A DNA stretch of 4,463 nucleotides from IMG/VR virus record IMGVR_UViG_2695420579_000010; one strand, 5' to 3'. Made by a program: the position numbers and the translations under genes. Shown one piece after another: positions 818 through 4,463 of the stretch. Within the stretch, counting starts at the first letter, position 1, and the number at the start of each line of letters is the position of its first letter. The notes under the pieces were generated by a model that was not told where the DNA came from, ran no database searches, and saw nothing but the letters and a program-made list of their open reading frames with translations. Origin of the DNA: a virus. Taxonomy: Duplodnaviria > Heunggongvirae > Uroviricota > Caudoviricetes.

Positions 818-847
818 TTGATTTCATATTGGCGAGGTAAGTAGAAT
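818..847 (+). promoter_or_regulatory. Candidate sigma70 promoter of the hok/mok transcript
   Basis: -35 TTGATT (818-823), 18-bp spacer, -10 TAGAAT (842-847). Predicted start near 852-855 coincides with the beginning of the 5' element that is complementary to the 3' UTR. Confidence 0.4.
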
Positions 848-851
848 GACT

Positions 852-902
852 GCGGGTGCTTGAGGCTATCTGCTTCAGGCATGAACACCAAAAGGCAGAT
901 AG
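852..902 (+). promoter_or_regulatory. hok mRNA 5' leader elements (tac-like 5' end plus stem-loop)
   Basis: GCGGGTGCTTGAGG (852-865) is the reverse complement of 1236-1251 apart from one bulged base. An 8-bp inverted repeat CTATCTGC (867-874) / GCAGATAG (895-902) follows. The layout resembles plasmid R1 hok mRNA as I recall it. Confidence 0.55.
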
Positions 903-904
903 AG

Positions 905-975
905 AAAAGCCCCAGTTAACATTACGCGTCCGGCAAGACGCTTAACATTAATCTGAGGCCAATTTCATGCTTTGC
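905..975 (-). ncRNA. sok: Candidate Sok-like antisense RNA (inferred, boundaries approximate)
   Basis: Inference only. Minus-strand -35 TTGCCT (reverse complement of 1005-1010), 17-bp spacer, weak -10 TAACCT (reverse complement of 982-987) would start an antisense transcript near 975 that covers the mok start codon at 967-969. A 5-bp hairpin lies at 926-941 on the minus strand, but there is no clean U-tract terminator. Confidence 0.25.
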
Positions 976-1179
976 ACATGTAGGTTAGCCTCTTACATGC
1001 CGAAAGGCAAGGAGAAGCAGGCTATGAAGCAGCAAAAGGCGATGTTAATCGCCCTGATCGTCATCTGTTTAACCGTCATAGTGACGGCACTGGTAACGAG
1101 GAAAGACCTCTGTGAGGTACGAATCCGAACCGGCCAGACGGAGGTCGCTGTCTTCGTAGACTACGAATCCAGGAAGTAA
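967..1179 (+). CDS. mok: Mok-like reading frame (in-frame N-terminal extension of Hok)
   Basis: 70-codon ORF beginning MLCTCR, 19 codons upstream of and in frame with hok. This is the same arrangement, with a similar N-terminus, as E. coli mokC/hokC as I recall them. Confidence 0.5.
   Translation: MLCTCRLASYMPKGKEKQAMKQQKAMLIALIVICLTVIVTALVTRKDLCEVRIRTGQTEVAVFVDYESRK
1024..1179 (+). CDS. hok: Hok/Gef family type I toxin (HokD/HokC-like)
   Basis: 51 aa, MKQQKAMLIALIVICLTVIVTALVTRKDLCEVRIRTGQTEVAVFVDYESRK: one hydrophobic transmembrane helix followed by the conserved LCE..R.G..EVA tail of Hok proteins. AAGGAG at 1009-1014 lies 9 nt before the ATG. Stop TAA 1177-1179. Confidence 0.9.
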   Translation: MKQQKAMLIALIVICLTVIVTALVTRKDLCEVRIRTGQTEVAVFVDYESRK

Positions 1180-1187
1180 GAGTGACC

Positions 1188-1215
1188 GGGCGGGGAGCTG
1201 ATCCCATCCCCGCCC
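1188..1215 (+). promoter_or_regulatory. Perfect 9-bp hairpin in the hok 3' UTR
   Basis: GGGCGGGGA (1188-1196) pairs with TCCCCGCCC (1207-1215) around a 10-nt loop. No U-tract follows, so it is a structural element rather than a terminator. Confidence 0.5.
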
Positions 1216-1235
1216 ACCTCTGATGTGTCAGGCAT

Positions 1236-1251
1236 CCTCAACGCACCCGCA
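1236..1251 (+). promoter_or_regulatory. fbi-like 3' element complementary to the hok mRNA 5' end
   Basis: CCTCAACGCACCCGCA (1236-1251) pairs with 852-865 as 6 bp plus 8 bp with a single bulged C, the long-range 5'/3' pairing described for hok mRNAs. Confidence 0.55.
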
Positions 1252-1256
1252 CTTAA

Positions 1257-1311
1257 CCCGCCCATCGCTGTGATCTCTCAGCGTTTCGGCGGGTTTTTTG
1301 TTGTTTATTTC
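1257..1311 (+). terminator. Rho-independent terminator of the hok transcript
   Basis: CCCGCC (1257-1262) pairs with GGCGGG (1288-1293), with an inner CGCTG (1266-1270) / CAGCG (1279-1283) stem, followed by TTTTTTGTTGTTTATTT. Confidence 0.65.
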
Positions 1312-2137: not shown

Positions 2138-2158
2138 TGCCGGAATAGAATCAAAAAT

Positions 2159-2321
2159 ACTTAAGTAGCGCGCAGGGAGAAGAGGGATGGACCCCGAACA
2201 GGGGAGTGCTATTTATCTGGAAGGATTCTGTTGATGAAAATCGAAGAATTACGTGAAATTTTTAGTGAAGATGGCCTCTATACTGTGCGCGTTGAGAATG
2301 GCGCTATTGTCAGCCACTGCC
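2159..2321. repeat. Direct repeat copy B
   Basis: Roughly 95 percent identical to 1354-1516. Starts 22 nt after the N gap and carries the same ACTTAAGT palindrome (2159-2166). Confidence 0.9.
2187..2234 (+). CDS. Possible 15-codon leader ORF upstream of X2
   Basis: ATG 2187; encodes MDPEQGSAIYLEGFC; stop TGA 2232-2234 overlaps the X2 ATG at 2234 (TGATG). Speculative. Confidence 0.25.
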   Translation: MDPEQGSAIYLEGFC

Positions 2322-2515
2322 TTCCAGACTACACAATTCTGATAATTCAGCCGTCTTTGCCAGCAGGCACGGGCGGCGCTCTCACGCATTTAAATCTGAT
2401 TGGTACCAGCATCCCCCATGCACTGAAGAACAGGCCGAATGGCTCATTCAGTGTTACCGCAGGCGCGGATGCGAGGTTAAAAAAGCCCTTAGCCTCGACT
2501 ACCGTCACTGGATAA
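2234..2515 (+). CDS. Hypothetical small protein X2 (shared N-terminus; C-terminal frame uncertain)
   Basis: ATG 2234 with GGAAGGA 8 nt upstream; 93 aa to TAA 2513-2515. After codon 29 the product is low-complexity (P/S/T/G/A-rich), and the -1 frame is also open through to 2589, so the true C-terminus may differ. Confidence 0.4.
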   Translation: MKIEELREIFSEDGLYTVRVENGAIVSHCLPDYTILIIQPSLPAGTGGALTHLNLIGTSIPHALKNRPNGSFSVTAGADARLKKPLASTTVTG

Positions 2516-2590
2516 TCTCCGTCAGGCTCCCTTACTCCGAACGGCCAACGCGTCCGTCCCGCACATTCCAGCAACGGATCTGGAGGTAAT

Positions 2591-3649
2591 GTGCGGGTAT
2601 TACTTCGACCTGTTCTGGTACCGGAACTCGGTCTGGTTATCGTTAAGCCAGGCCGTGAATCAATGTCAGCATTCCATAACGGCAGAATACTGGTGGAGCC
2701 GGAACCAAAAAGCATGCGTAATCTGCCGTCCGGGGTCGTTCCTGCCGCTCGCCAGCCGCTGGTGGAAGACAAAACATTGCTGCCGTTTTTCAGTAACGCA
2801 CGGGTGATTCGTGCTGCTGGTGGTGCTGGTGCATTGTCTGACTGGCTGTTGCGCCATATTAAATCCTGCCAGTGGCCACACGGCGATTATCATCACAGCG
2901 AAACCGTCATTCACCGTTATGGTACCGGCGCAATGGTGTTGTGCTGGCACTGCGACAACCAGCTGCGTGACCAGACATCCGAATCACTCGAGCAACTTGC
3001 TCATCAAAACCTGTCAGCATGGATGATTGACGTCATCGGTCACGCAATAAGCGGTACGCAGGAGCGTGAATTATCTCTGGCTGAATTATCCTGGTGGGCG
3101 GTCCGCAATCAGGTGGCGGACGCGCTACCGGAAGCGGTATTACGTCGTTCGCTGGGGTTGCGTGCGGAAAAAATTCGCTCTGTGTACAGTGAAAGCGACA
3201 TCATACCGGGAGAGCAGACAGCCACCAGCATACTGAAGCAGCGCACAAAAAATATTGCGTTACTGCCTCACGTCCACCAGCAACAGAACCCACCACAGGA
3301 AAAGACGGTGGTCAGCATTGCCGTTGATCCGGAGTCACCGGCTCAGTATCTCCAGCGCCAGAAATCACAACGGGAAGAGATGCCTGTATACACGCGCTGG
3401 GTAAAAACGCAGAAATGCATGACGTGTGGCAATCAGGCAGATGATCCGCATCACATCATTGGTCATGGACTGGGAGGGATGGGAACAAAGGCTGATGATT
3501 TGTTTGTTATTCCGTTATGCCGTAAATGCCGTAACGAACTACATGCCGGAGTAAAAGATTTTGAAGAGAAACACGGCAGTCAGCTGTTGTTGCTGATTCG
3601 TTTTTTAATGCACGCGAGAAATTCGGGTGTTCTGAAGTGGAAAGCATAA
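2591..3649 (+). CDS. DUF968 / YdfU-like prophage protein with Cys/His-rich modules
   Basis: 352-aa ORF from GTG 2591 with GGAGG (2582-2586) 4 nt upstream; alternative ATG at 2663. The translation resembles Qin prophage YdfU as I recall it. Contains CWHC and a C-terminal CMTCGN..HHIIGHG..CRKCRNELH motif. Stop TAA 3647-3649 abuts the rusA ATG. Confidence 0.8.
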   Translation: MRVLLRPVLVPELGLVIVKPGRESMSAFHNGRILVEPEPKSMRNLPSGVVPAARQPLVEDKTLLPFFSNARVIRAAGGAGALSDWLLRHIKSCQWPHGDYHHSETVIHRYGTGAMVLCWHCDNQLRDQTSESLEQLAHQNLSAWMIDVIGHAISGTQERELSLAELSWWAVRNQVADALPEAVLRRSLGLRAEKIRSVYSESDIIPGEQTATSILKQRTKNIALLPHVHQQQNPPQEKTVVSIAVDPESPAQYLQRQKSQREEMPVYTRWVKTQKCMTCGNQADDPHHIIGHGLGGMGTKADDLFVIPLCRKCRNELHAGVKDFEEKHGSQLLLLIRFLMHARNSGVLKWKA

Positions 3650-4030
3650 ATGACCGAGCGCATAGAATTTGTTTTACCTTACCCGCCGACGGTGAACACT
3701 TACTGGCGTCGTCGTGGCAGCACATATTTTGTATCAAAAGCCGGGGAGCGTTATCGCCGGGCAGTGGCGCTTATTGTTCGCCAGCAGCGGCTGAAATTAA
3801 GCCTGTCCGGAAGGTTGGCAATAAAAATTATTGCAGAACCACCGGATAAGCGCCGCCGTGACCTGGACAATATTCTGAAAGCGCCGCTGGATGCGCTGAC
3901 GCATGCGGGGTTGCTAATGGACGATGAGCAGTTTGATGAAATCAATATCGTTCGTGGTCAGCCAGTATCTGGTGGACGTCTGGGGGTGAAGATTTACCCC
4001 ATAATGCATGAAGAGCAGGTCAAAAAATGA
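3650..4030 (+). CDS. rusA: Crossover junction endodeoxyribonuclease RusA (Holliday junction resolvase)
   Basis: 126 aa with RusA hallmarks: N-terminal LPYPPTVNTYW, the acidic catalytic region RRRDLDNILKA..DAL..AGLLMDDEQ. Its stop overlaps the Q start (ATGA at 4027-4030). Confidence 0.9.
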   Translation: MTERIEFVLPYPPTVNTYWRRRGSTYFVSKAGERYRRAVALIVRQQRLKLSLSGRLAIKIIAEPPDKRRRDLDNILKAPLDALTHAGLLMDDEQFDEINIVRGQPVSGGRLGVKIYPIMHEEQVKK

Positions 4031-4463
4031 AACTGGAAGATTTACCGAAATACTACTCCCCAAAATCCCCCGGCCTGACTGATGCATCGGCCTCAACGTC
4101 GAAAGATGCGCTGAGTATCACTGATGTGATGGCCGCGCAGGGCATGACACAGAATCGGGCTGAGATGGGGGTTTCTGCGTTCCTTGGGAAAATGGGCATT
4201 AGTATGAATGACAGAGAGCGGGCAACAGAATTGCTGACAGAATATGCACTCAGTCGGTGTGATCGCGTGGCGGCGTTAAGAAAACTCCCGGCAGAAATAA
4301 AACCGGCAGTGATGCGTATTATGGCTTCGTATGCGTTTGAAGATTATGCCCGTAGCGCGGCGAGCAAAAAACAGTGCCCCTGCTGTCACGGAAAAAAATT
4401 TATTGAAAGCGAGGTTTTTACAAACAAGATCCAGTATCCGGATGGTAAGCCGCCGGTATGGGC
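4027..4463 (+). CDS. Antitermination protein Q (partial; 3' end beyond the window)
   Basis: Open frame from ATG 4027 to the window end, not in the ORF track because it has no stop. Translation starts MKLEDLPKYYSPKSPGLTDASAS and reaches a CPCCHGKKF zinc-finger-like motif. Sits in the canonical position after rusA in lambdoid late-regulatory regions. Confidence 0.8.
   Translation, partial: MKLEDLPKYYSPKSPGLTDASASTSKDALSITDVMAAQGMTQNRAEMGVSAFLGKMGISMNDRERATELLTEYALSRCDRVAALRKLPAEIKPAVMRIMASYAFEDYARSAASKKQCPCCHGKKFIESEVFTNKIQYPDGKPPVW

Follow-up and report, generated by a model that had tools for sequence, protein, structure and literature searches.

A hok-like toxin gene in a phage-derived sequence poses the question of whether it stands on its own, with the RNA elements that hok regulation requires, or is the last gene of a relBE operon as in the Qin prophage of E. 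coli K-12, and of whether such a copy might still be live. The stretch analyzed here (4463 bp; hereafter the window) represents part of a lambdoid prophage, according to its ORF list and Pfam annotation, with the following gene order:

110–796: QueH, the gene directly upstream of the hok locus
818–1311: the hok locus
1429–1716: a Rem homologue
2062–2137: a run of N interrupting a DUF1367 gene
between the DUF1367 gene and DUF968 in gene order: a truncated second copy of rem
2591–3649: DUF968
3650–4030: RusA
4027 onward: the Q antiterminator

The hok module lies in the nin region of this prophage, and we consider it very likely that positions 818–1311 constitute a complete hok/mok/sok type I toxin–antitoxin module of the hokW/hokD subgroup. 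Positions 1–2061 are 99.8% identical to a single prophage in "E. coli" FDAARGOS_943, whose complete genome matches the hok region (800–1330) at 100%, and Shigella flexneri SFBU1023 carries a copy of the hok region at 99.6%. Because of this high identity to both copies, the window probably derives from S. flexneri or a close relative, that is, from an S. flexneri-type prophage.

The same neighborhood could suggest an ordinary relBE-hokD (relBEF) arrangement, with hok as the distal gene of a relBE operon as in K-12 Qin: PGAP names the window gene hokD, and the downstream rem homologue, followed past the gap by DUF968, RusA, and Q, resembles Qin. However, the gene upstream is QueH and not relE, both in the window and in the 100%-matching complete genome, and hok is preceded here by a full leader of ~170 nt that the K-12 hokD lacks. 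The preliminary description of this locus, made from the sequence by itself, had drawn the same contrast with K-12 and had pointed to an upstream relBE pair as the mark of the ordinary arrangement; homology with K-12 indeed starts only at the hok Shine–Dalgarno (SD) sequence, the leader being replaced there by the 3′ end of relE. We therefore rejected the relBEF reading, to which we assign almost no probability, and retained that of a complete hok/mok/sok module.

The coding part of the module comprises three elements:

955–958, + strand: mok SD (GAGG), 8 nt before the mok ATG
967–1179, + strand: mok frame of 70 codons, sharing the reading frame and the stop codon of hok (ORF list)
1024–1179, + strand: hok toxin ORF of 51 amino acids, with its SD (GGAG) at 1011–1014

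The Hok protein matches the Pfam family HOK_GEF (PF01848) over profile positions 1–42 of 42 (79.9 bits for a cut-off of 22; 9.8e-23). It is identical to HokW at 50 of 51 positions, the single difference being Glu50 of HokW, which is Arg in the window copy, and to K-12 HokD at 46 of 51. Against the NCBIfam Hok models it reached 55 bits, below the curated cut-off of 73; we count this score against our explanation and, because of the Pfam and Rfam scores, do not read it as evidence against membership. In Rfam, the family RF01794 ("sok") was found at 117 bits (gathering score 59), its full model (1–157) aligning to 854–1029 on the + strand. As this match begins with GGGUGCUUGAGG and stops at the hok AUG, RF01794 in practice models the hok mRNA leader and not the antisense RNA. 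Together with the complete leader, the two family matches bear out the initial reading of a stand-alone hok/mok locus. Another Rfam match in the window, to the snoRNA sR55 (2979–3040, 23.9 bits for a threshold of 35), was dismissed as a chance hit.

Regulation of hok depends on the folding of its mRNA, for which the window holds these elements:

854–865, + strand: tac, the predicted 5′ end of the hok mRNA (GGGUGCUUGAGG); position 1 of the RF01794 model falls on 854
872–882, + strand: partner of tac in the metastable 5′ hairpin, pairing with 856–866 in the nascent or truncated RNA
866–902, + strand: 5′ stem-loop, seen in the minimum free energy (MFE) fold and formed in the full-length RNA when fbi holds tac
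906–913, + strand: ucb, or anti-SD box (AAAGCCCC), pairing with the mok SD in the full-length fold
1236–1250, + strand: fbi (CCUCAA-C-GCACCC, plus GC), pairing with tac in both the MFE fold and RNAduplex

Read from the sequence, 852–859 (GCGGGUGC) pairs with 1243–1250 (GCACCCGC) and 860–865 (UUGAGG) with 1236–1241 (CCUCAA), leaving C1242 bulged; these are the same pairs that had been described as 6 + 8 bp with one bulge. The elements at the mRNA 5′ end were thus correctly located, but its placement at 852 was not retained: phylogenetic conservation places the 5′ end at G854, where the Rfam model also starts, and the two G-C pairs at 852–853 would exist in the RNA only if transcription began further upstream.

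RNAduplex gave −26.9 kcal/mol for the 5′/3′ duplex, where 5000 dinucleotide-preserving shuffles of the 3′ UTR gave −15.5 ± 2.2 and paired as well only once. No rival site for the 5′ end came close elsewhere in the window, the next best reaching −19.3 by RNAduplex. The MFE and centroid fold of 854–1300 (−189.6 kcal/mol, z = −8.5) contains the tac/fbi pairing that the preliminary description had proposed to check by folding, and the MFE also holds the 866–902 stem-loop, the 1188–1215 hairpin, and the terminator, as well as a helix of 909–913 with 955–959 that sets the ucb box against the mok SD, which is sequestered in a hairpin. When fbi is absent, as in RNAs 854–905 and 854–1228, the MFE fold is instead the metastable hairpin 856–866/872–882. 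The tac/ucb stem of the R1 model was not found in the MFE folds of these truncated RNAs. Nevertheless, ucb (AAAGCCCC) is complementary to tac (GGG.GCUU) and invariant at alignment columns 53–59 in the 32 loci described below; this complementarity and invariance, together with the R1 model (PMC9841398), suggest that tac and ucb may pair in the truncated RNA, in a helix where tac position 4 would be bulged.

To place these pairings in an evolutionary frame, we scanned one genome per species, which gave 47 loci, and aligned 32 loci with a leader from the transcription start to fbi: the window, 29 of the 47 scanned loci, phage 933W, and an additional copy from E. coli. They belong to Escherichia, Shigella, Kluyvera, Photorhabdus, Pantoea, and Citrobacter. 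Loci without a homologous leader (L010, L038, L043) and one with a disrupted 5′ end (L009) were left out, while L018, whose 3′ end is disrupted, was retained and counted as one failure. A 5′/3′ duplex of 11–14 bp, sought with RNAduplex free of register, is kept in 31 of the 32 loci across the six genera, the sole exception being L018, a hokC copy with a non-homologous 3′ region.

In tac, G1–3, G5, C6, U7, and U8 are invariant, while position 4 varies with its fbi partner (pair 4/409: UA in 18 loci, CG in 11, UG in 2, and unpaired in 1). The metastable hairpin is 96.3% paired over the 32 loci, and there the same position varies with another partner (pair 4/28: UA 19, CG 12, UG 1). Tac position 4 therefore covaries with two mutually exclusive partners, the hallmark of the hok folding pathway; such "coupled covariation" was reportedly described by Gultyaev, Franch and Gerdes in 1997. 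The Photorhabdus loci at first seemed to pair poorly in the distal part of tac/fbi (12–13 "other" cells in the alignment). This was a register artefact, arising because these loci lack the bulged C, and RNAduplex finds 12 continuous bp in them.

The 5′ stem-loop, which had also been described beforehand and is present in the full-length MFE, is conserved as well: helix 2 (866–902) is 92.2% paired across the 32 loci, with double changes at three pairs. For the whole projected MFE, 83.9% of the cells are paired, compared with ~40% when the partners are slid, and 35 pairs show double changes compared with 24.5 ± 2.3 in shuffles, a control that overstates significance because the aligned sequences are related. 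The weight of the covariation argument was accordingly placed on the slide control and on the specific compensatory pairs.

One might still suppose that the 5′/3′ complementarity is a chance match devoid of structural role, the sequence being G+C-rich and bulged 14-nt matches being able to arise by chance. That a single shuffle in 5000 did as well, that 31 of 32 loci keep the duplex with compensatory change, and that the pairing is part of the MFE together refute this supposition, which we consider extremely improbable, and the complementarity first noted between the two ends is best taken as the long-range tac/fbi pairing of a hok mRNA.

The leader would also govern how hok is translated. ATG 967 opens the 70-codon in-frame ORF that had been described as a Mok-like extension, a layout identical to that of the annotated mokW of 933W, and the mok SD is invariant in the 32 loci (columns 102–105). 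An in-frame mok ATG located 57 nt upstream of hok is the majority state (24/32 loci), with mok in another frame in 4/32. Translational coupling from mok to hok is predicted by analogy with known systems.

The antisense component is encoded on the opposite strand:

905–975, − strand: Sok antisense RNA of ~71 nt, running from 975 to 905, with coordinates taken over from the sokW annotation of 933W
982–1010, − strand: Sok promoter, with a −35 TTGCCT (1010 to 1005), a 17-nt spacer, and a −10 TAACCT (987 to 982)

The Sok coordinates were carried over through a gap-free alignment with 933W, and hokW-sokW has the same two promoter hexamers. The Sok promoter, a 7/12 match, escaped the promoter scan and was placed through the sokW homology; the R1 Sok promoter is an about equally poor match to the consensus. 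A "pro-less" mutant of sokW alters exactly this −10 (primer YO-421, CCGGCTCG, for the wild-type TAGGTTAG), and in this promoter-less mutant of Takada et al. protection against HokW was lost (PMC8621323). In its predicted fold (−30.4 kcal/mol, z = −4.8), Sok is single-stranded at the 5′ end, continues into a long hairpin, and closes with a GGGGCUUUUCU tail. At the level of sequence, then, the locus carries a putative cis-encoded antisense Sok with its own promoter and terminator hairpin. The metastable 5′ hairpin, the ucb anti-SD box, and the antisense Sok gene with its promoter are all present here and had been absent from the elements listed in the preliminary description.

Downstream of hok, two structures complete the transcript:

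1188–1215, + strand: perfect 9-bp 3′ hairpin (stem 1188–1196/1207–1215) with a 10-nt loop
1255–1300, + strand: intrinsic terminator with an outer stem of 8 bp (1255–1262/1288–1295), an inner stem of 5 bp (1266–1270/1279–1283), and a T-run

Both had been noticed from the sequence, and folding agrees. The 3′ hairpin reaches −20.9 kcal/mol (z = −4.2), and a GGCGGGG...CCCCGCC hairpin occurs in 32/32 loci; by analogy with the R1 model of processing, it is likely the stop for 3′ exonucleolytic trimming. The terminator folds at −22.8 kcal/mol (z = −6.7) and is followed by a run of six T's at 1294–1299, the first two of which close the stem, leaving UUUU at 1296–1299. A consensus terminator scan of 700–1450 gave no match, because the scanner allows loops of up to 8 nt and the loop here is longer; direct folding shows the hairpin. 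In this loop, a 23-nt insertion (1262–1284) with its own 5-bp stem stands where the relatives have a TTCG tetraloop. Seen in comparison with K-12 and with a close relative (L002), it is common only to the Shigella-type copies L001, L005, and L006. The insertion lengthens the terminator and hence the 3′ tail to be trimmed before activation, and we count it against our explanation.

A predicted promoter of the locus's own, as initially claimed, was found just upstream of the leader:

818–847, + strand: predicted hok promoter, with a −35 TTGATT (818–823), an 18-nt spacer, and a −10 TAGAAT (842–847)

It makes 9/12 consensus matches in the promoter scan and is supported as a consensus match only. 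The position of the −10 is kept across the relatives (TAGAAT/TATAAT/TACAAT/TATATT). Compared with L002, however, the window copy lacks 10 bp (TAACGGTAGT) of the stretch that runs from the relatives' −35 (TTGGCG, with a spacer of 17 nt) to the −10. Because of this spacer deletion, the hok −35 is not homologous to that of the relatives; a TTGATT 18 nt from the −10 now occupies its position. The replaced −35 is also counted against our explanation.

The displaced −35 is what one could expect of a structurally intact but silent relic whose hok mRNA is unexpressed, like most K-12 chromosomal hok loci. The prophage of the 100%-matching genome, with its many IS1, IS600, and IS2 elements and truncated genes, points the same way: the carrier prophage is probably defective, a dead phage may be the present home of the hok module, and we count this IS load against our explanation. 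So we do a passage of a preprint reporting that the chromosomal hokA/B/C loci tested earlier were inactive in post-segregational killing (bioRxiv 10.1101/2025.08.07.668861). We nevertheless find silence unlikely. A substitute −35 is available within a 9/12 promoter match, and the R1 hok promoter is itself naturally weak. Moreover, tac, fbi, ucb, the mok SD and ATG, the hok ORF, and the Sok promoter are all intact and conserved, and Sok is retained next to an intact hok, as would be necessary if the toxin were live. The window copy is a probable live toxin–antitoxin module of the hokW type.

The 10-bp spacer deletion and the 23-nt terminator-loop insertion are the only oddities of the window copy, and we regard them as minor variants. 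It is rather doubtful that they retune the timing of Hok release, through less mRNA and slower processing, or that the gene is instead expressed by read-through of the phage early-right operon upon induction. If retuning did occur, this copy would represent a naturally altered hok "timer"; if the nin-region copy were read through, toxin release would be tied to the lytic programme.

The elements found here, their predicted folds, their conservation and covariation, and the near-identity to a tested locus fit a mechanism that we propose by homology with hok/sok of plasmid R1 and hokW-sokW of phage Sp5. A weak promoter would yield an mRNA of ~445 nt, from 854 to ~1299, in which tac would be held during synthesis in the metastable hairpin (856–866 with 872–882). 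Once the 3′ end is complete, tac would pair with fbi (1236–1248), which would lock the mok SD (955–958) against ucb (906–913), so that the full-length RNA could be neither translated nor bound by Sok. Slow 3′ trimming to the 1188–1215 hairpin would then remove fbi, and the 5′ end would refold to expose the mok translation start and the Sok target. As long as it is being made, the presumably short-lived Sok (975 to 905) would bind this RNA, and the duplex would be destroyed. If Sok were no longer made, because the element is lost, transcription is shut off, or the prophage is induced, mok and then hok would be translated, and the 51-aa Hok peptide would damage the inner membrane.

As for the biological role, the hokW-sokW locus was shown in 2021 to be a functional type I toxin–antitoxin system, in which HokW is toxic and is neutralized by sokW with partial dependence on RNase III and Hfq (PMC8621323). 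By analogy, the window Hok, identical to HokW at all but one position, would be toxic and neutralized by its Sok. In the same study, Sok disappeared after mitomycin C treatment, HokW was made in a RecA-dependent manner, and deletion of hokW-sokW halved phage release (PMC8621323). The preliminary description had named post-segregational killing or phage defence as plausible roles; this study, the only experimental work on a near-identical locus, points to help with lysis and phage release after prophage induction.

The main role might alternatively be abortive-infection defence against other phages, and not prophage maintenance or assistance in lysis. A passage of the hokW-sokW study mentions that R1 hok/sok on a high-copy plasmid lowers T4 plating (PMC8621323), and hok genes are ~4-fold enriched in prophages (bioRxiv 10.1101/2025.08.07.668861). 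In contrast, hok is not enriched near defence systems (bioRxiv 10.1101/2025.08.07.668861), and hokW-sokW raised the release of its own phage and did not block phage (PMC8621323). For the window itself, PADLOC found no family at E ≤ 0.01 for any of six proteins (Hok and its neighbors). Overall, defence as the main role seems rather unlikely.

The feature is already known: it belongs to a well-described family, is annotated in public records, and is near-identical to an experimentally characterized locus. Of 5426 complete E. coli genomes, 4713 have a Megablast match, and in 3361 of the 5426 a match spans 80% or more of the 531-nt query, an extent that is reached only if the leader is included; all of these are annotated hokD. 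A further 110 phage records, many of them of Stx phages, have a match. The view of the window copy as a stand-alone locus with its own leader was upheld, but not that of a special arrangement, this being the common state in E. coli and one annotated in 933W. Prophage genes called "hokD" are of two kinds: most belong to a full hok/mok/sok module, whereas others, like that of K-12, are leaderless and fused to relE, and automatic annotation names both alike. The importance of the window lies mainly in correct annotation, and work on Shigella or STEC prophages should treat this copy as a probable live hokW-type module. It also displays all RNA elements of the textbook hok folding pathway in one place, and the 32-locus comparison re-derives the coupled covariation behind that pathway.

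Among known systems, the closest is hokW/mokW/sokW of 933W and Sp5 (VT2-Sakai), whose HokW is 44% identical to R1 Hok (PMC8621323). It shares 91% nucleotide identity with window positions 831–1258, the same in-frame 70-codon mok (mokW of 933W), identical tac and fbi, and a lambdoid phage as carrier. The nin-region position of the window locus, with the replication genes/QueH on one side and rem...Q on the other, differs however from that of the 933W locus, which is flanked by ea22-like genes and a YgiW-like gene. The two also differ in the sequence variant of the 3′ hairpin, and 933W diverges directly after fbi and lacks the window's terminator. The promoter-spacer deletion and the terminator-loop insertion are likewise found in the window copy and not in hokW.

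The K-12 Qin hokD (relF) shows identity to the window from the hok SD (AGGAGAAGCAGGCTATG) onward, across the ORF, 3′ hairpin, and fbi to the terminator; the two have the same hok SD, fbi, terminator stem, and 3′ hairpin type, and the same downstream neighborhood (rem, DUF968/ydfU, Q). Yet the K-12 hokD has lost the promoter, tac, ucb, the mok start, and sok, and the 3′ end of relE stands 5′ of its hok SD; a now-pointless fbi is still kept. Such a leaderless relE fusion was also found in one Kluyvera genome (L038).

In the prototype of plasmid R1 (parB), mok is read in a frame other than that of hok, where the window mok is in frame. R1 hok/mok/sok otherwise possesses the same elements (tac/fbi, the metastable hairpin, the ucb anti-SD box, mok–hok coupling, and a cis-antisense Sok), and the folding pathway and 3′ processing predicted for the window are those of R1 (PMC9841398). 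The R1 locus is carried on a plasmid and the window locus on a chromosome, in a prophage, and the 3′ tail that needs to be removed is longer in the window copy.

Finally, hokC/mokC (gef) and the Photorhabdus hok loci can be aligned with the window over the whole mRNA at 70–80% nucleotide identity and share both the tac/fbi and the metastable pairings, with an in-frame mok in most copies. The Photorhabdus loci differ in their C at tac position 4, for which a G compensates in each of the two partners, and in their tac/fbi helix, which has 12 bp and no bulge.

Besides the hok locus, the window contains the following features:

110-796, gene for QueH (epoxyqueuosine reductase; Pfam match of 220 bits)
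1320-1347, second promoter-like site (TTGATT, 16-nt spacer, TAGAAT)
2062-2137, gap of 76 N, parting 1-2061 from 2138-4463

The part before the gap matched one prophage of the complete 'E. coli' genome FDAARGOS_943 at 99.8%; in this genome, the DUF1367 gene is followed by DUF1364, DUF1133, and IS1. The part after the gap resembles the gene order of the cryptic K-12 prophage Qin, with the spacer found downstream of hokD, then rem, ydfU/DUF968, and Q. The pieces on either side of the 76 N probably originate from different prophages, which scaffolding appears to have joined over repeated prophage sequence.

A direct repeat of 163 bp (1354-1516 and 2159-2321, 94.5% identical) was found in the window, spanning a conserved leader (CTTAAGTAGCGCGCAGGGAGAAGAGGGATGGACCCCGAACAGGGGAG...) together with codons 1-29 of a Rem homologue. 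Of the two copies, the first belongs to a complete Rem-like ORF of 95 aa, and the ORF of the second (2234-2515) diverges from it past 29 aa; this second rem copy looks like a deletion derivative. The promoter-like site at 1320-1347, whose hexamers are exactly those of the hok promoter, comes directly after the hok terminator and precedes the rem homologue with its conserved leader (~80 nt). On the upstream side, hok is adjoined by the QueH gene, which serves tRNA modification and is phage cargo within the nin region of the prophage.

The Rfam model RF01794 ('sok') matched the plus strand at 854-1029, from the 5' end of the hok mRNA to the hok AUG, and no minus-strand match to this model was reported in the window. 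RF01794 is in effect a model of the hok leader, not of the antisense RNA, and this can misdirect strand annotation.

The motif for A-to-I editing by TadA is UACG. The Tyr47 codon of hok lies within TACGAA (1162-1167), which is invariant in the aligned leader-bearing loci (32/32). Editing has been reported to recode Tyr to Cys in hokB, with a similar event in hokC/D/E (bioRxiv 10.1101/2025.08.07.668861), and full toxicity of the window copy may require it.

Only one of these 32 loci, the hokC-type L018 of E. coli ECDA1023, lacks the 5'/3' duplex, its 3' UTR diverging directly past the 3' hairpin. This fits the disruption of K-12 hokC by a downstream IS186 insertion. Upstream of hok, the compared loci L010 and L038 lack a homologous leader. 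L038, from Kluyvera sp. CHPC 1.2972, carries the leaderless relE-hok fusion with the same junction sequence as K-12 Qin; the fusion is therefore not peculiar to K-12.
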